Positions 1-9,453 of a stretch of DNA of 16,675 bases are shown in pieces (position 1 is the first letter of the stretch; the number at the start of each line of letters is the position of its first letter). The position numbers and the translations under genes were made by a program. The DNA is from a virus (lineage: Duplodnaviria > Heunggongvirae > Uroviricota > Caudoviricetes), in the IMG/VR virus record IMGVR_UViG_2639762982_000011. One strand, 5' to 3'. The notes beneath the pieces were generated by a model that was not told the origin of the DNA, ran no database searches, and was given only the letters and a program-made list of their open reading frames with translations.

Positions 1-63
1 GCGGGGAAGTTTGCTTCTTTGAGGGGCAGGTTTTCGTTTACGGGGTTTAGCTGAACGGGACAT
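1..63 (-). CDS. 5' end of outward-reading ORF, partial (N-terminus MSRSAKPRKRKPAPQRSKLPR...); duplicate of the ORF starting at 16552
   Basis: ATG is the reverse complement of 61..63 and the frame stays open to the window edge. Identical to the right-arm copy, which continues YVVKLHDDDFFDEEDAEALR. Weak SD (AGGT) upstream. Confidence 0.45.
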   Translation of the reverse strand, partial: MSRSAKPRKRKPAPQRSKLPR

Positions 64-76
64 ATAACTACCTGAA

Positions 77-125
77 AGACAATGATATTGTCTGTTTTTA
101 TAACGGTAATTTCAGGCCATGACAA
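77..125 (-). promoter_or_regulatory. Putative sigma70 promoter plus palindromic operator (left-arm copy)
   Basis: Mirror of the right-arm element: -35 TTGTCA (rc 120..125), 17-bp spacer, -10 TATAAA (rc 97..102), then perfect palindrome AGACAAT-N3-ATTGTCT (77..93) between -10 and the ATG. Confidence 0.4.
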
Positions 126-621
126 GCCGCAGCCGCCAGGCTGCCTACTCGATATTAAATCCCATCCAGAATAATTGAATAACGGCTATTATTTAGTCGC
201 CGCAATATCTTCAAAGTTTTTTTCTCACCCCATTGCTTTTTGCGCACAGCTTATCTGGCTTGCGGTGCGCCGAAATGTAAATTCGCCTTCAGAGTTATCC
301 ACAAAGTTATGCACTTGCAACGAGGCCATTTTCCTCATACTGTGTTTGCACACACAGGAAATGGATATTTTATTAATTGAATTTTATTAAATAATAATGA
401 TAAGGAGAAAATTTGAGATGTAATCATGACATTAATAGATAGGGCCTGCATTACAGGCCCCAACTACATCAAGGAATTCACAGTTCCCTGATTTTTATAC
501 CGAAAACATGTGCCGTAAGTTCACGTTAACGACTTTCTTTCACCGAATCCAACTATATAGAGGTTGGGTTTCTACGTCAACGTGAGAGCACACAGCTTTA
601 CATTTGACGAGGATTACCCTG

Positions 622-759
622 ATGATTGTATTTTTTCAGTTTCTAAGTGCATTTTTAAATGCGCCTGTTCTTAGCCAAGTGCTGGCGATTGTCTTCATCG
701 TGGTTCTGATATGGTTTTTCAAGTCAGTGATAAACAGAGGCGTGCGCTGGCTTATTTAA
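622..759 (+). CDS. Small hydrophobic peptide, 45 aa (MIVFFQFLSAFLNAPVLSQVLAIVFIVVLIWFFKSVINRGVRWLI); single predicted transmembrane helix
   Basis: Hand translation; below the ORF-track length cutoff. GAGGA at 609..613, 8 nt upstream of ATG 622. Basic C-terminal tail. Confidence 0.3.
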   Translation: MIVFFQFLSAFLNAPVLSQVLAIVFIVVLIWFFKSVINRGVRWLI

Positions 760-1297
760 TGTCGCGCTGAGATATTAATTCCCTTGCTGTTTAACCATTT
801 TTTGTGTGTGCTGGTGAGCGTGTGAAGGCTCAATTTGTTGCCCACCAGTATTTACTATTTCTAAGCTCCACAGTGTCACTTCCGCACAAACAACTTAGCG
901 CGGAATCAGTATTCGGCCCAAGATGTAAAAAGCCAACCTGCGTTATGGTTCGCATTTCCAAATAGTGTTCTGAACGCCCGTGCCGGGCGCGAGATGTGGA
1001 TTAGCGTTCGCGCTATGCTGATATACGGCTTTAGACTTTCCATATTGCTGACAGGCTTTATCTGCGGTTTTTTGCAGGCTATCCAGCCCATACCAGCCAT
1101 CAGACTGGATGCTTACCTTTTCACCGTCATTGTATTGCACCATCGCGAACCCAAACATAGCTATCATCGCACCGACAATACCGCTTTTCCAAAAAGCTCT
1201 AATTAGGTCATTCGTTGCCTAATGTCCGAACTGCTAAAGCATCAAAGTTGCTGTAGAATCACCGCCAATTACTTAAGCCTGAAATAAGTGGAAGAAA

Positions 1298-2854
1298 ATG
1301 ACAAGTATTCAACAACGTGCAGAACTTCATCGCCAGATCTGGCAAATTGCTAACGATGTCAGGGGTTCAGTCGATGGATGGGATTTTAAGCAGTACGTTC
1401 TGGGCGCGCTTTTTTATCGTTTTATCAGCGAAAATTTTTCCAGCTATATGGAAGCCGATGATGACAGCATCTGTTATGCAGCACTGGATGACAGCGTAAT
1501 TACTGATGACATTAAAGACGATGCCATCAAAACCAAAGGCTACTTCATCTACCCAAGCCAGCTTTTCTGCAACGTAGCTGCGAAAGCAAATACCAATGAC
1601 AGACTGAATGCAGATTTAAACAGTATCTTCGTTGCTATCGAAAGTTCTGCTTACGGCTACCCTTCAGAAGCAGACATCAAAGGTTTGTTTGCTGATTTCG
1701 ATACCACCAGTAACCGCCTGGGTAACACCGTTAAAGATAAAAATGCCCGCCTGGCTGCGGTTCTGAAAGGGGTTGAAGGGTTAAAACTTGGTGACTTCAC
1801 CGAACATCAGATTGATCTGTTCGGTGACGCCTATGAGTTCCTGATTTCTAACTATGCCGCGAATGCCGGTAAGTCCGGCGGCGAGTTCTTTACACCGCAG
1901 CACGTCTCTAAGCTGATTGCACAACTGGCTATGCACGGGCAGACCCACGTTAACAAAATCTACGACCCGGCAGCAGGCTCCGGTTCGCTGTTGTTGCAGG
2001 CTAAAAAACAGTTTGATGACCATATCATCGAAGAAGGTTTTTTTGGTCAGGAAATCAACCATACGACCTATAACCTGGCGCGTATGAACATGTTTTTGCA
2101 CAACATCAACTACGACAAGTTTGATATCAAGCTGGGCAATACGCTGACTGAACCACACTTCAGAGATGAAAAACCGTTTGATGCCATCGTTTCTAACCCG
2201 CCGTATTCGGTGAAATGGATTGGCAGCGATGACCCGACGCTGATTAACGATGAACGTTTTGCCCCGGCTGGCGTTCTGGCCCCCAAATCAAAAGCTGACT
2301 TCGCCTTTGTACTACATGCGCTGAACTATCTTTCTGCCAAAGGTCGTGCTGCGATTGTTTGCTTCCCGGGTATTTTTTACCGTGGCGGCGCGGAGCAGAA
2401 AATCCGTCAGTATCTGGTTGATAATAACTATGTCGAAACCGTGATTTCACTGGCACCGAACCTGTTCTTTGGCACCACCATTGCCGTAAACATTCTGGTG
2501 TTGTCTAAACATAAAACAGATACAAAAGTTCAGTTTATTGACGCCAGCGAACTATTCAAAAAAGAGACCAACAACAATATCCTGACCGATGCCCATATCG
2601 AACAGATTATGCAGGTATTTGCCAGCAAGGAAGATGTTGCTCATCTGGCGAAATCAGTCGCGTTTGAGACCGTTGTTGCTAATGACTATAACCTGTCGGT
2701 GAGCAGCTATGTTGAAGCGAAAGATACTCGCGAAATTATCGATATCGCTGAGTTGAATGCAGAGCTGAAAATCACGGTCAGCAAAATCGACCAGTTGCGT
2801 AAAGATATTGATGCGATTGTGGCTGAAATTGAAGGCTGCGAGGTGCAGAAATGA
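1298..2854 (+). CDS. hsdM: Type I restriction-modification DNA methyltransferase subunit HsdM (N6-adenine), type IC family
   Basis: 518-aa ORF. AdoMet-binding motif [10 protein letters not shown] and catalytic NPPYS motif. Stop overlaps the hsdS start (ATGA at 2851..2854). N-terminus [15 protein letters not shown] resembles EcoR124-family HsdM as I recall it. Confidence 0.95.
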
Positions 2855-4107
2855 GCGAGTTGAGTTATCTGGAAAAATTGCTGGATGGGGTTGAGGTTGA
2901 GTGGAAACCCTTGAAGGATGTTTGTGATTTTAAAAATGGATTTGCATTTAAAAGCAGCTTATTTAAAGAAACTGGGTTACCGATAGTTAGAATCACAAAT
3001 ATAGATGGATTTAATGTTGACTTAGATGAGGTGAAATACTTTTCACTAAATGATTACAAGGAAGATTTATCCTCCTTTGAGGTATCTATGGGAAATATAT
3101 TGATTGCAATGTCAGGTGCCACTACAGGAAAAGTGGGAATTTATAAAAAAGGAACAAAATGTTATCTTAACCAACGGGTTGGAAAATTCATACCCAAAGA
3201 AAATATTCTAAACAATAATTATTTATACCATTTTTTATTGTTAAATACAGAGACTATTTATATCCTCGCCGGGGGCGGAGCACAACCGAATCTAAGCTCA
3301 AATGCATTGATGTCAAAACTACTCATCCCAATTCCCTGCCCGGATAATCCGGAAAAATCCCTCGCCATCCAGTCTGAAATCGTTCGGATTCTGGACAAAT
3401 TTACTGCACTTACCGCTGAGCTTACCGCTGAGCTTAACATGCGTAAAAAACAGTACAACTACTATCGCGACCAGTTGCTGAGTTTTAAAGAGGGTGAGGT
3501 TGAGTGGAAGGCATTGGGAGAAGTAGCCAAAATACAACGTGGGGCATCCCCCAGGCCAATTGTTAATTATCTTACTGAACAAGGAAATGGTATCCCATGG
3601 ATTAAAATCGGAGATACTATCCCCGGCTCTAAATACATTGACAAAACCTTACAAAAAATAACTGCAGAGGGTGCCCAAAAATCGCGAATCTTGAACCCCG
3701 GTGATTTCGTCATTTCTAACTCTATGAGCTTTGGCAGACCATATATTTTAAGGATAACCGGAGCTATCCATGATGGATGGGCATCAATCAGCAATTTTGG
3801 TGAAAAATTAAATGCTGATTATCTGTATCACTATCTTTCATCAAAAAAGGTGAAAAATTATTGGGAAAGTAAAATCAATAGCGGGTCGGTCAGTAACTTG
3901 AATGCAGATATTATAAAAACATTACCAGTGCCATTGCCTGATAAACAGAAACAAGAGCGAATATCTGCTCTGCTCGATAAATTCGACACCCTGACCAACT
4001 CCATCACCGAAGGTCTCCCGCGTGAAATCGAGTTGCGCCAGAAACAATACGAGTACTATCGTGACTTACTGTTCAGTTTCCCGAAACCTGAAACTGTCAG
4101 TAATTAA
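2851..4107 (+). CDS. hsdS: Type I restriction-modification specificity subunit HsdS, type IC family, two target-recognition domains
   Basis: 418 aa. Central conserved region ...[33 protein letters not shown] and C-terminal conserved region ...[36 protein letters not shown] separate two variable, AT-rich domains. Translationally coupled to hsdM. Confidence 0.95.
3409..3432. repeat. Two tandem copies of 12-bp unit CTTACCGCTGAG (LTAE-LTAE) in the hsdS central conserved region
   Basis: Direct read: cttaccgctgag cttaccgctgag, in frame with hsdS. This is the repeat whose copy number sets spacer length in EcoR124I versus EcoR124II. Confidence 0.9.
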
Positions 4108-4228
4108 TTGACCATTGCTACCGACCGGACCACCTTAACATCCGGTCTGTATATAGACTATTTTTTACGTGCCGGAAGTCACCCTTAACTCCCTTCCGGC
4201 CCTTGCCAGACGGCACAAAGGATGCGCT
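4108..4228 (+). promoter_or_regulatory. hsdS-hsdR intergenic region; possible independent hsdR promoter and hairpin
   Basis: 121-bp gap. Hairpin ACCGGA...TCCGGT (about 4124..4147) followed by a T-run. Candidate TTAACA-N17-TAGACT. SD AAAGGA before ATG 4229. Weak promoter match. Confidence 0.3.
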
Positions 4229-7200
4229 ATGACTCATCAGACACACACTATTGCTGAATCCAATAACTTTATCGTCCTTGATAAGTACATCAAAGCTGAG
4301 CCAACAGGCGACAGCTACCAGAGCGAATCGGACCTGGAACGTGAACTGATTCAGGACCTGCGGAATCAGGGCTATGAATTTATATCCGTAAAATCTCAGT
4401 CGGCTATGCTGTCCAATGTTCGGGAACAGCTTCAGAGCCTCAATGGTGTGGTGTTTAATGACAGCGAGTGGCGGCGTTTCACGGAGCAGTATCTGGACAA
4501 CCCGAGCGATGGCATTCTGGATAAGACCCGTAAAATCCATATCGACTATATTTGCGACTTTATTTTTGACGACGGGCGTCTTGAGAACATCTATCTGATA
4601 GATAAAAAGAATCTCATGCGCAACAAAGTGCAGATTATCCAGCAGTTTGAACAGGCAGGTTCTCACGCTAACCGTTATGACGTAACTATCCTGGTTAATG
4701 GCTTGCCTCTGGTGCAAATCGAACTGAAAAAGCGCGGCGTGGCGATTCGTGAGGCTTTCAACCAGATACATCGTTACAGTAAAGAGAGTTTTAACAGCGA
4801 AAATTCCCTGTTTAAGTATCTGCAACTGTTTGTCATTTCTAACGGCACCGATACCCGTTACTTTGCCAACACCACAAAGCGCGATAAAAATAGTTTTGAC
4901 TTCACCATGAACTGGGCGAAATCAGACAACACGCTGATTAAAGACCTCAAAGATTTTACCGCTACCTTTTTCCAGAAACATACTCTGCTGAATGTTCTGG
5001 TGAACTACAGCGTTTTTGACAGTAGTCAGACGCTACTGGTGATGCGACCGTACCAGATTGCCGCCACCGAGCGCATTCTGTGGAAAATTAAGAGCTCCTT
5101 TACAGCGAAGAACTGGTCAAAACCGGAAAGCGGTGGGTATATCTGGCACACCACGGGTTCCGGTAAAACCCTGACCAGCTTTAAAGCCGCGCGTCTGGCA
5201 ACAGAACTGGACTTTATTGATAAAGTTTTCTTTGTGGTCGACAGGAAAGACCTCGATTACCAGACCATGAAGGAATATCAGCGTTTTTCGCCAGACAGCG
5301 TCAACGGCTCGGAAAATACCGCAGGTCTTAAACGAAATCTGGATAAGGACGATAACAAAATTATCGTCACCACTATTCAGAAACTTAATAACCTGATGAA
5401 AGCAGAAAGCGACCTGCCTGTATACAATCAGCAAGTGGTGTTTATATTTGATGAATGTCACCGCAGCCAGTTTGGAGAAGCACAGAAAAACCTGAAGAAG
5501 AAATTCAAACGCTATTATCAGTTTGGTTTTACCGGCACACCTATTTTCCCGGAAAACGCCTTAGGCTCAGAAACGACCGCCAGCGTATTTGGCCGTGAAT
5601 TGCATTCATATGTTATTACCGATGCGATTCGTGATGAAAAAGTGCTTAAATTCAAGGTGGACTACAACGATGTGCGGCCACAGTTTAAGTCTTTAGAGAC
5701 AGAAACTGACGAGAAAAAACTGAGTGCGGCTGAAAATCAGCAGGCGTTCCTTCATCCCATGCGTATTCAGGAAATTACGCAATATATCCTGAATAACTTC
5801 CGCCAGAAAACCCACCGTACTTTCCCTGGCTCCAAAGGTTTTAATGCCATGCTGGCAGTGAGCAGCGTGGATGCCGCGAAAGCCTATTACGCGACGTTTA
5901 AACGGTTACAAGAGGAAGCCGCTTATAAATCTGCTACCTATAAACCACTACGTGTTGCGACAATCTTCTCCTTTGCCGCTAATGAAGAACAAAATGCCAT
6001 TGGTGAAATTTCCGATGAAACTTTTGATACCAGCGCAATGGACAGCAGTGCTAAAGAGTTTCTCGACGCTGCAATTCGTGAATATAACAGCTATTTTAAA
6101 ACTAACTTCAGTACCGACAGTAACGGTTTTCAGAACTACTATCGTGATTTAGCCCAACGGGTTAAAAATCAGGATATCGATCTGTTAATTGTCGTTGGGA
6201 TGTTTTTAACCGGCTTCGACGCTCCAACATTGAACACGCTATTCGTCGATAAAAACTTGCGTTTTCACGGCCTGATGCAGGCATTCTCCCGCACCAACCG
6301 CATTTATGACGCGACTAAAACCTTCGGTAATATCGTCACGTTCCGGGATCTGGAACGCTCAACCATTGATGCCATAACGCTGTTTGGTGACAAAAATACC
6401 AAAAATGTGGTTTTAGAAAAGAGTTATGCAGAGTATATGGAAGGCTTTACTGATGCTGCCACTGGTGAAGCTAAACGCGGCTTCATGACAGTAGTTTCAG
6501 AACTGGAACAACGGTTCCCTGACCCTACCAGTATTGAAAGTGAAAAAGAGAAGAAAGACTTCGTTAAACTGTTTGGCGAATACCTGCGTGCCGAGAACAT
6601 CCTGCAAAACTATGATGAATTTGCCACGCTAAAAGCCCTGCAACAAATCGATCTTAGCGATCCTGTTGCGGTAGAAAAATTCAAAGCAGAACATTATGTG
6701 GATGATGAAAAGTTCGCTGAATTGCAAACAATTCGTCTCCCTGCTGATCGCAAGATTCAGGATTATCGTTCTGCCTATAACGATATTCGCGACTGGCAGC
6801 GCCGTGAGAAAGAAGCTGAGAAAAAAGAGAAATCAACCACTGACTGGGATGATGTAGTTTTTGAGGTCGATTTGCTGAAGTCTCAGGAAATAAACCTGGA
6901 TTATATCCTTGGACTGATTTTCGAACACAACAGACAAAATAAAGGCAAGGGCGAAATGATCGAAGAGGTCAAACGCTTAATTCGTTCAAGCCTGGGAAAC
7001 CGGGCGAAAGAGGGCCTGGTGGTCGATTTTATTCAGCAAACGAACCTGGATGATTTACCAGACAAAGCCAGTATCATTGAGGCATTCTTTACGTTTGCTC
7101 AACGCGAACAGCAACGTGAAGCAGAAGCATTGATAAAAGAAGAAAACCTCAATGAAGAAGCAGCAAAACGCTATATTCGCACGTCTTTAAAACGCGAATA

Positions 7201-7345
7201 CGCCACCGAAAATGGCACAGAATTAAACGAAACATTACCAAAACTTAGTCCGTTGAATCCGCAATATAAAACGAAAAAACAGGCAGTTTTCCAGAAAATC
7301 GTCTCGTTTATTGAGAAGTTTAAAGGCGTAGGCGGAAAAATATAG
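4229..7345 (+). CDS. hsdR: Type I restriction enzyme endonuclease/helicase subunit HsdR
   Basis: Walker [14 protein letters not shown]-type box FDECHR, nuclease-like D...ELK motif in the N-terminal region (VQIELKK). ATG 4229 has SD AAAGGA about 7 nt upstream; the ORF-track start at 4169 is a GTG without SD. Confidence 0.93.
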
Positions 7346-7361
7346 CCCAATTCGTGTTTTT

Positions 7362-7389
7362 CTTGCGGGTTCTTAATTAAACCCGCAAG
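7362..7389. other. 9-bp stem hairpin just after the hsdR stop (CTTGCGGGT / ACCCGCAAG)
   Basis: Perfect inverted repeat with 10-nt loop. T-run precedes rather than follows the stem on the + strand, so not a canonical terminator. Confidence 0.3.
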
Positions 7390-7424
7390 AGACCGTGGGG
7401 TTCCAAATGGCTAATATACTCCCC

Positions 7425-7511
7425 TTACCCATGCGCAACGATGCCGCCAAAAATGATAGAGAACAGCCAGAAATAGATCGCGGCCATAATGATTTTGAAT
7501 GCCGTGTTCAT
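7425..7511 (-). CDS. Small membrane peptide, 28 aa (MNTAFKIIMAAIYFWLFSIIFGGIVAHG)
   Basis: Hand translation. Strong SD AGGAG about 8 nt upstream of the ATG (rc of 7509..7511). Single hydrophobic helix. Lies downstream of operator-like promoter 7581..7610. Confidence 0.4.
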   Translation of the reverse strand: MNTAFKIIMAAIYFWLFSIIFGGIVAHG

Positions 7512-7539
7512 ATTTTCAGCTCCTGTGATTGATTGGATA

Positions 7540-7570
7540 CATGCCGCGCCTTGCGGCATGTTTTTATTTT
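7540..7570 (+). terminator. Rho-independent terminator-like hairpin (CATGCCGC-GCCTT-GCGGCATG followed by TTTTTATTTT)
   Basis: 8-bp GC-rich stem, 5-nt loop, T-rich tract immediately 3' on the + strand. On the minus strand it sits in the leader of the 28-aa ORF. Confidence 0.5.
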
Positions 7571-7580
7571 CACTTTCTCT

Positions 7581-7610
7581 GTTTTAAAAATCAAGACTTA
7601 TTAGAGCAAT
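7581..7610 (-). promoter_or_regulatory. Operator-like element ATTGCTCTAATAAGTCT (P1 C1-operator-like) fused to a conserved ATTTTTAAAAC element; putative repressor-controlled promoter
   Basis: Minus-strand read ATTGCTCTAATAAGTCTTGATTTTTAAAAC. 13/17 match to the P1 C1 operator consensus ATTGCTCTAATAAATTT as recalled. Same bipartite 30-nt element recurs at 9723..9752 (26/30 identical). TTGCTC-N17-TAAAAC geometry. Confidence 0.5.
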
Positions 7611-8116
7611 TATTGTTGATGGAGAAGCGCGTTTTCATACTCCCTGACCATTAACGTAAGTACGCCGTGACTCCTGAAAACACGCGCCACTTCAATCTTA
7701 TCTTCCAGCGCGAACGCAATTTTACTTAGACCAATTTTCTTCAGGAGATCAATCTTTGCTGGACCGTCATTTCTGTCATCGGTGGCAGGACGCATAGATA
7801 GCAAAGGCTCAGCCCCATTTGTTACGTGCTTACGCAACCAGGCTCGTGTTTTATCCCTGGCTATCTCACAGCGCCCGGTTACAAACCAGAGGGTGTAAAT
7901 GCCGGACAACTGGCGCACCATATCAATAACTGGAGTGATGGGAGCATCAGTGTCACAGGCAAGGTTAAACTCGTTCCAGTGCTCTGTTAATGCACCTTTG
8001 CCAGGTGGTGGAAGTAAATGCAGCCTGTCTTCCGTTGCCTCTGATATCGTCCCATCAATATCTACTATGACGATGTACGGACGTTCCTGGTGTGCGTGTT
8101 TATTGAAAATACTCAA
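7610..8116 (-). CDS. HAD-superfamily phosphatase-like protein (168 aa)
   Basis: N-terminal motif IVIVDIDGTIS (DxDGT, HAD motif I). Start is TTG at 8116 with strong SD GAGGAGG upstream. Substrate not inferable. Confidence 0.7.
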   Translation of the reverse strand: MSIFNKHAHQERPYIVIVDIDGTISEATEDRLHLLPPPGKGALTEHWNEFNLACDTDAPITPVIDMVRQLSGIYTLWFVTGRCEIARDKTRAWLRKHVTNGAEPLLSMRPATDDRNDGPAKIDLLKKIGLSKIAFALEDKIEVARVFRSHGVLTLMVREYENALLHQQ

Positions 8117-8188
8117 ATGCCCTCCTCATTGGACGAAAAAAATGCTGGTGGGAGCACTCCACCAGCATTAAAAGTGACACTGTAACTA

Positions 8189-9394
8189 TCAGCGAACGTA
8201 AATAGTGCCGCCGTTCTCTTTTTCCCATGCATCGCTACGTGCATAGCAAACATCGAGAAGTCTTCTTGCCGCAGTTTCCTCTAAACCCAATTCGACAACC
8301 AACTGCTCATGACGGCGGGTAACCACATCAAACAGGGTATGCAGCCCTTTAGTTGCCAGATCATCAATGAATTCCGGTTCGAACGGCAGCTCTGCATCTG
8401 CTAACATAACCTCTTGCGCCCACTCAACTCGACGGACCAGTTCCGGGCGGCGGCTTTCCATCTCTTTACAGATCAATTCATGGAAGAACTCTACCCAACC
8501 TTCCGGCTGGAACTCGCGGAAAATTGCCAACGGCTGGAAGTTTGGCATCAACCATTCGTTGATTCGGATATCAATGGCATAGCCCATGTCGCAGCAGAAC
8601 TGATAAGCAAAGTCCAGCTTAGAAACGATATAAGGACGCTCGTTATTGAACTCTTTAGGCGATGAGATCCCATAAGCCAGGAGGCGCGGGAAGAAGGAGA
8701 TTTGCCCTAACGTCGGATGAAGTTTGCTTGCAGGGAAACGGCGCTCAGTAATGCCATACATTTCCTTCTTGAGCGTCGCAAATTTGGCATTCTCATTAAC
8801 CAGCGCGGTAACCTCTGCTTTTTTATTAGCAAATGCCACGCGCGCTTCGCTTGCATCTTTAATAGTTTTTTTGAGCTGTTGGTTAAGGTCGGCGACCTGC
8901 TTACGCAGTTCCTGTCGCTCGCTTTTAGCTTTGTTATAGCGTTTCTCAAGGTTAAAAGGATCAAGTTTCATGATCTCTTTATATTGAGATTTTAGCGTTG
9001 AAATCTGTGAGTTCCGCAGTTCAACCATCGCGGTCATTTCATTGAGTTTTGTTTCCAGCTCAATGCTTATACGTTCGGCATTATCAGCACGCTGGTTGGC
9101 GTCATGCGTCGCATCGTCGATCGCGTCCTGTTGCTGGCGTTTCAAATGTTCAATTTGCAGCTGAAGCTCTTCAATTTCTTTACCCTTCAGACCGAGATCC
9201 AACTGCATATTTTCAGCTGCATCTACCAGGGAGTTATGGCTATCAGCTTCTGCGTTATAAACATCAATAAGCTGTGCGTGAAGCATCTCCGCTGACTGAA
9301 CCGCATTATCAAAAAAAACGTGCTGTGAGGTCATCACAACTAACGCGGCGTTGCGCGGCCCGGATGTTCTGGATAATGGCCGGGATACCGGCAT
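8189..9394 (-). CDS. Coiled-coil protein with uncharacterised C-terminal domain (401 aa as called); 5' end probably extends to ATG 9452 across a frameshift
   Basis: N-terminal half is heptad-rich and charged (EELQLQIEHLKRQQQ..., RQELRKQVADLNQQLKK); C-terminal about 200 aa is globular-looking. No SD before ATG 9394 or 9334. See homopolymer at 9311..9318. Confidence 0.75.
   Translation of the reverse strand: MPVSRPLSRTSGPRNAALVVMTSQHVFFDNAVQSAEMLHAQLIDVYNAEADSHNSLVDAAENMQLDLGLKGKEIEELQLQIEHLKRQQQDAIDDATHDANQRADNAERISIELETKLNEMTAMVELRNSQISTLKSQYKEIMKLDPFNLEKRYNKAKSERQELRKQVADLNQQLKKTIKDASEARVAFANKKAEVTALVNENAKFATLKKEMYGITERRFPASKLHPTLGQISFFPRLLAYGISSPKEFNNERPYIVSKLDFAYQFCCDMGYAIDIRINEWLMPNFQPLAIFREFQPEGWVEFFHELICKEMESRRPELVRRVEWAQEVMLADAELPFEPEFIDDLATKGLHTLFDVVTRRHEQLVVELGLEETAARRLLDVCYARSDAWEKENGGTIYVR
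9311..9318. other. A8/T8 homopolymer tract at a frame junction inside the 5' region of the coiled-coil gene
   Basis: ORF starting at ATG 9452 (MSTSAQNQSIENVSIPDVLNAGIPAIIQNIRAAQRRVSCDDLTARFF) stops immediately after the tract. Removing one T fuses it in frame to the 8189..9394 ORF. Confidence 0.8.
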
Positions 9395-9453
9395 TCAGGA
9401 CATCAGGGATAGATACATTTTCGATTGATTGGTTTTGTGCTGAAGTGCTCATT

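Follow-up and report, generated by a model that had tools for sequence, protein, structure and literature searches.

The hsdS gene in the DNA analyzed here (the window, a stretch of 16,675 nucleotides) contains a 12-bp sequence repeated twice in tandem, and the same hsdS allele exists in a 2-unit and in a 3-unit form, each of them in an intact M-S-R system. The repeat is very probably the TAEL 'molecular ruler' of a type IC specificity subunit (HsdS), in which misalignment of the units would change the spacer of the DNA target by 1 nt while the half-sites are kept. This is a known mechanism, correctly identified in a new family member that has distinct recognition domains and is carried on a P1-like phage-plasmid. 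The main value of the analysis is confirmation, together with an intact EcoR124-type system on this type of carrier.

The repeat consists of two perfect tandem copies of CTTACCGCTGAG on the plus strand, at positions 3409-3420 and 3421-3432 of the window. They are in frame within the open reading frame (ORF) 2851-4107 and give the peptide LTAE-LTAE-L; the copies encode L187-TAE-LTAE194 of HsdS, with TAEL present twice at amino acids 188-195. An incomplete third unit, CTTA, follows on the same strand at 3433-3436, after which the sequence decays into CTTAACATG (L-N-M). This reading is consistent with the output of Tandem Repeats Finder (TRF), which reports the array at 3409-3436 with a period of 12, 2.3 copies, 100% matches and no indels. 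The preliminary description of this DNA had placed a doubled 12-bp unit encoding LTAELTAEL at 3409-3432, in the central region of hsdS. The repeat was confirmed by reading the sequence, by TRF and by the ORF frame, and its central position by an alignment to the EcoR124I HsdS chain (PDB 7bst). By chance, only about 0.001 perfect 12+12 tandems are expected per 16,675 bases of the same composition, and none of 300 shuffles contained one. A search of the window for further exact copies of the unit gave none. The remaining TRF matches in the window (4543-4565, 6805-6827 and 16648-16666) are low-scoring and comprise 1.9-2.1 imperfect copies.

The array is part of an operon with the gene order hsdM-hsdS-hsdR, in which all three genes are intact and on the plus strand. 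The methyltransferase gene hsdM (1298-2854) encodes 518 amino acids, which match TIGR00497 (646 bits) and the Pfam families N6_Mtase and HsdM_N. Its product aligns to PDB entry 7bst_D over 518/518 amino acids with 1142 bits and about 8 substitutions. The first 4 nt of hsdS (2851-4107; 418 amino acids, WP_001293041.1) are also the last 4 nt of hsdM, and the HsdS protein matches Pfam Methylase_S in two stretches. After a gap of 121 nt follows hsdR (4229-7345), the gene for the motor/nuclease subunit. The 1038 amino acids of HsdR match TIGR00348 and the Pfam families HSDR_N, SWI2_SNF2, T1R_D3-like and EcoR124_C, and align to PDB 2w00_A over the full length (1-1038) with 2288 bits.

Members of one type I family share more than about 70% similarity, and in type IC the central conserved region contains a tetra-amino-acid unit such as TAEL or LEAT in tandem (PMC10030836). 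The HsdM and HsdR proteins of the window are close to those of EcoR124I, the conserved regions of its HsdS flank two variable domains, the TAEL repeat lies in the central region, and the operon has the order given above and is located on a 139-kb plasmid. As far as sequences can tell, the system has every testable defining feature of the type IC (EcoR124) family. The preliminary description had already likened the repeat in the central region of this hsdS to that of the EcoR124 family; the assignment is supported by the alignments to 7bst and 2w00 and by Pfam. From the near-identity of HsdM and HsdR it is very likely that the system would show complementation, antibody cross-reaction and DNA hybridization within the family.

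The alignment of HsdS with the S chain of EcoR124I (7bst_A; E = 4.6e-85) separates conserved from variable parts. The N-terminal region differs in one residue. The central conserved region (about amino acids 159-220; 3325-3510), which forms the first helix of the coiled coil and separates the recognition domains, is identical in both proteins, including a common stretch of 61 residues. The C-terminal region is also identical; its conserved helix of 44 residues (3973-4104) is the partner helix and carries no repeat. Both recognition domains are poorly conserved in this alignment. Domain 1 (approximate limits 2905-3324) is unlike the GAA domain of EcoR124I, and domain 2 (approximate limits 3511-3972) is unlike the RTCG domain. 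Domain 1 also differs in those relatives that match just the query positions 476-1257. Domain 2 is common to the alleles of two sister P1-like plasmids, L002 (NZ_CP122597.1) and L003 (NZ_CP062905.1), where it lies inside a stretch with about 97.6% identity. The hsdS of E. coli AW1.7 is 98.4% identical to that of the window. Since both recognition domains are unlike those of EcoR124I, the half-sites of the window enzyme should not be GAA and RTCG. The window hence encodes a type IC system with the machinery of EcoR124I and two other recognition domains. The analogy to the specificity of EcoR124 drawn earlier should hold for the spacer rule but not for the half-sites.

Some further features of hsdS are recorded here. 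Positions 2889-2913 and 3492-3516 form a 25-nt direct repeat with 84% identity, which encodes GVEVEWK and GEVEWK at the starts of the two recognition domains. This repeat is a trace of the two-fold internal duplication of HsdS, and domains could be swapped by recombination here. On the minus strand, opposite the conserved region, an ORF of 87 amino acids (3319-3582) has no sign of being a gene. The reference chain 7bst_A is itself named 'EcoR124II specificity protein', yet with 404 amino acids and two TAEL it is the EcoR124I form; repeat number should not be inferred from the names of database matches.

The TAEL spacer mechanism has been textbook knowledge since 1989. The 12-bp sequence is present twice in EcoR124I, which recognizes GAA N6 RTCG, and three times in EcoR124II, which recognizes GAA N7 RTCG (PMC3874165); the same rule was quoted in the preliminary description and agrees with this source and with PMC7383803. 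EcoDXXI and EcoPrrI have three TAEL each and an N7 spacer, and in hybrids of EcoR124I and EcoDXXI the spacer tracked the repeat number as predicted, regardless of the recognition domains (PMC3874165). Applied to the window, each 12-bp unit would lengthen the first coiled-coil helix by four residues, slightly more than a helical turn; the coiled coil is taken to hold the two recognition domains apart. The gain or loss of one unit is always in frame. One unit should move the domains by about 1 base pair of DNA; both half-sites would be kept and the spacer would change by 1 nt. By analogy, two units would give N6 and three units N7. As EcoR124I has the same or nearly the same central helix, partner helix, HsdM and HsdR, we strongly infer that the 2-unit and 3-unit forms would recognize the same half-sites, one base further apart in the 3-unit form.

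The lengths of the two helices can be compared directly. From DKF to RKKQY the central helix (3391-3450) has 13 amino acids with two TAEL and 17 with three. The corresponding segment of the partner helix, from DKF to RQKQY, has 17 amino acids and is thus 4 amino acids longer than the central helix with two TAEL. A third unit would equalize the two helices. This fits the remark of Loenen et al. (2014, PMC3874165) that three units are perhaps the optimum; the same authors raised the tolerance of the coiled coil to a 2-unit mismatch as a structural question.

The most direct evidence for a change in unit number comes from the window's own allele. The IMG/VR contig IMGVR_UViG_648276648_000009 (L020) aligns to window positions 152-9699 at 99.83%. 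Over this span of 9.5 kb, L020 has 12 extra nt in the repeat, three substitutions and, far downstream at window position 9311, a deletion of 1 nt. The hsdS gene of L020 is identical at 1257/1257 window positions and has a third unit in addition (422 amino acids). Its HsdM protein is identical to that of the window; hsdR differs by one synonymous SNP (S32), with an identical HsdR protein. Identical genes that differ only in unit number are the defining genetic feature of the EcoR124I/EcoR124II switch, and they were found here in the pairs window/L020 and L002/L003. The preliminary description had named an invariant copy number across all relatives as the result that would speak against a switch; the window's exact allele already has a 3-copy form.

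The two forms of this allele are unequally represented. The 2-unit form occurs in 4 complete plasmids and its protein on 91 + 21 contigs (about 110), while the 3-unit form is a single record. These numbers, and the fact that all four complete plasmid records of the allele have two units, could mean that the two units are a fixed structural feature and that the lone 3-unit relative arose by a rare accident in the past, without any function as a switch. We consider this very unlikely. The 3-unit DNA differs from the window only by the few changes listed above, with M, S and R intact, which indicates that the change is recent and was not purged. Furthermore, half of the alleles with two or more samples occur in more than one copy number (see below), and the change is functional in published experiments on a protein with an identical central region (PMC3874165). 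The ruler remains the preferred reading, and with just two units in the window and about 110 2-unit contigs against one 3-unit record, the array looks like an occasional evolutionary switch and less like a case of rapid phase variation. Misalignment needs at least two units, and switching may therefore be rare. When 1-, 3- and 4-unit versions of the window and L003 proteins were designed and looked up by exact match in a collection of 15 billion proteins, none of them was found. This absence is weak evidence because the real RefSeq 3-unit protein of L002 is also missing from that collection.

The second pair comes from the sister plasmids. The L002 sequence (3 units, 402 amino acids) and the L003 sequence (2 units, 398 amino acids) are identical over 3.8 kb except for one unit, and each form is present in three independent records. 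To extend the comparison, 189 complete HsdS proteins were sorted into 161 alleles with the repeat masked. Twelve of these alleles were sampled at least twice, and 6 of the 12 occur with two copy numbers. The count of repeat copies in relatives that had been suggested earlier hence yields five alleles with two copy numbers in addition to the window's own. Five allele pairs were compared as DNA; over 1.6-11.3 kb, each pair has a single gap of 12 nt and 0-7 substitutions. These natural pairs of 2-copy and 3-copy genes support the earlier claim that specificity can be switched by expansion or contraction of the repeat, the effect on the spacer being expected by analogy.

The frequency of the two forms was estimated by counting loci that have the left flank of the window together with one unit. 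The best 120 protein homologues are almost all 2-copy, a sample biased to the 2-copy query, and the census was therefore made by DNA searches. The IMG/VR loci comprise 22 with two units and 9 with three, with no other number. Metagenomes contributed 28 loci with two units, 17 with three, one with 4 and one with 6. Among the complete E. coli genomes, 60 evenly spaced records out of 1341 matching ones were sampled and counted by ourselves from alignment length differences; about 25 have two units and about 28 have three, one has 1, one has 4, two have 5, and three are not classifiable. Both two and three copies are common across relatives. A scan of GTDB with one genome per species, which is a sparse sample, gave only one locus, in Mixta tenebrionis. 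Some candidates for 1-unit loci were rejected on inspection: the metagenome loci L065 and L084 are imperfect multi-unit arrays, and L041 is a frameshifted EcoR124I-like gene and not a clean 1-unit case.

Assemblies can miscount tandem repeats, and the variant copy numbers might in principle be artefacts of sequencing or assembly. This explanation is hardly credible. The whole array has 24-36 nt and is far below any read length. Three assemblies, independent of each other and differing in country and source, contain the 3-unit L002 allele, and a pair with 1 and 2 units was read on 24 contigs per form.

The route by which the ruler changes its length is a separate question. Unit number would change through misalignment of identical units, by replication slippage or by unequal crossing-over. 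The preliminary description spoke of a slipped-strand switch; the change in copy number stands, while for the route the literature names unequal crossing-over (Loenen et al. 2014, PMC3874165), and the two routes look alike at the level of sequence. Another possibility is that misalignment within the locus plays no part and that the copy number is altered by recombination or gene conversion with a second type IC hsdS of the cell, for example between plasmid and chromosome. Alleles are nearly identical to each other in the central region, some E. coli genomes have up to 6 matching places, and recognition domains are shuffled as a whole; the window and L002/L003, for example, have domain 2 in common but not domain 1. 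All this would favor an exchange between loci. Nevertheless we consider it unlikely as the source of the variation in copy number. The flanks of the pairs are identical up to the edge of the repeat, and arrays with 5, 6 or 8 units could not be imported from the common 2- or 3-unit alleles.

The spelling of the units also argues against an import. Three 12-nt units with different sequences encode the LTAE peptide repeat: CTTACCGCTGAG is the one in the window and most relatives, CTGACAGCAGAA that of L040, and CTTACAGCAGAG that of the L091-L097 loci. Each lineage has essentially perfect repeats of its own unit; mismatches inside the arrays are absent except for a synonymous third-base change in an end unit of L039 and L040. 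The L040 array, for instance, reads CTGACAGCAGAA three times followed by CTGACAGCAGAG, and L095 has CTTACAGCAGAG twice near position 5550. This pattern points to repeated duplication in situ with homogenization, and not to import, as the probable origin of the arrays.

Loci with abnormal unit numbers were inspected individually. Eight units are present in the chromosome of E. coli 33-6 (L004 1053-2360), where hsdM and the 5' end of hsdS are cut by IS1. The metagenome contig L056 has six units (about 4127-4969, minus strand) and is without domain 1 and hsdM. Five units occur in the NT1F10 chromosome (L039 4011-5246) with hsdM cut by IS2, and four units in the 1000C-3 chromosome (L040 2065-3330) with hsdS cut by ISVsa5. 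The chromosomal locus L091-L097 (5001-6281) exists with 1 and 2 units, and hsdM lacks the first seven codons in both forms; this is the pair mentioned above that was read on 24 contigs per form. One more locus with four units, L060, is a fragment. In this small sample, unit numbers outside 2-3 were found only in damaged loci, except for L060, which is too short to judge. The result suggests that the array drifts once selection is lifted. It also fits an unstable array that is kept at two or three units as long as the enzyme is used, and selection appears to hold working systems at these numbers. To our knowledge, a tie between abnormal repeat numbers and broken type I systems has not been described before; it could aid the annotation of dead versus live type I loci.

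A bolder version of this idea is tentative and on balance rather unlikely. It assumes that the repeat is a fast-mutating site that is held at 2-3 units only while the enzyme works, that populations of P1-like phage-plasmids contain a standing N6/N7 mixture as a bet-hedging form of defense, and that the array drifts to 1, 4, 5, 6 or 8 units once hsdM or hsdS is broken. If this were true, the length of the array would be a simple read-out of the time since a type IC system died, and the natural series of 1-8 units would provide material on how the coiled coil absorbs a shift in register.

Known systems resemble the window to different degrees. EcoR124I and EcoR124II (R124, R124/3) have near-identical HsdM and HsdR, identical or almost identical conserved HsdS regions including the TAEL repeat, a location on plasmids and the 2-versus-3 unit polymorphism in otherwise identical genes. 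The window differs from them in both recognition domains and in its carrier, not R124 but a fusion of a P1-like phage-plasmid with an F-type replicon. EcoDXXI and EcoPrrI belong to the same family and have the same repeat; they show that three units are a normal working state with other recognition domains. Their recognition domains are in turn different from those of the window, whose allele has two units. An hsdS annotated as EcoprrI (H239) is among the matches of 3-unit length. The type IC system NgoAV of Neisseria gonorrhoeae is similar in that the number of a tetra-amino-acid repeat varies among natural strains; PacBio methylomes showed that one or two LEAT repeats result in GAC N6 TGC or GAC N7 TGC (PMC6789123). 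NgoAV differs in the repeat peptide and the host, and its poly-G frameshift switch is absent from the window locus.

Phase-variable type I systems with simple sequence repeats have long tracts of short units, whose frameshifts turn genes on and off at high frequency. In these systems, as would be the case in the window, a repeat located in a type I gene changes the methylation pattern (Atack et al. 2019, PMC7383803). In contrast to them, the window has a 12-nt unit that is in frame and present twice, and it would alter spacing and not expression. We rejected the window as a frameshifting phase-variable system, because the unit is a multiple of 3, is present twice and leaves all observed variants in frame. 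An inverting shufflon with multiple hsdS genes was also rejected; there is just one hsdS in the window and in its annotation, with no cassette repeats. The only inverted repeat within hsdS is short (16 nt) and lies inside domain 1.

Type IC enzymes establish efficiently in naive hosts, and their methylase has no preference for hemimethylated DNA (PMC12707154). For these reasons it is plausible that a cell with a freshly changed specificity survives. The window allele in its two ruler states offers a natural pair for the rule of four residues per 1 bp with new recognition domains. The pair also indicates that, among E. coli plasmids of livestock and human origin, type IC specificity is still diversifying by repeat change. 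A search for papers that link P1-like phage-plasmids with hsdS variation found none.

Plasmid pSvP1_F of E. coli SvETEC (NZ_MN510446.1, 139 kb, IncFIB) matches the window at 100% identity. The gene surroundings are those of a P1-like phage-plasmid; the sister plasmids encode a C1 repressor, terminase, late promoter activator, phd/doc, an S24 peptidase and a homologue of DNA polymerase III theta. The alignment of P1-like plasmids is confined to window positions 152-16463. Both ends of the window (1-151 and 16464-16675) run into IS91-family copies, with the accessory ORF WP_000091308.1 at both ends on opposite strands. These alignment limits and the IS91 copies indicate that in pSvP1_F, a P1/F cointegrate, a P1-derived block of 16.3 kb is flanked by IS91 elements in inverted orientation.

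Other changes were noticed on related plasmids. The sister plasmid NZ_CP122822.1 (L001 14379-18808) has an hsdS that is 100% identical to that of the window and an hsdR interrupted by IS1203; by its gene content this system probably still methylates and has lost restriction. The 1-nt deletion of L020 at window position 9311 lies inside the ORF 8189-9451 on the minus strand, and the hypothetical gene of this ORF is annotated as frameshifted in NZ_CP122822.1. This gene of the P1 backbone seems to be decaying repeatedly.
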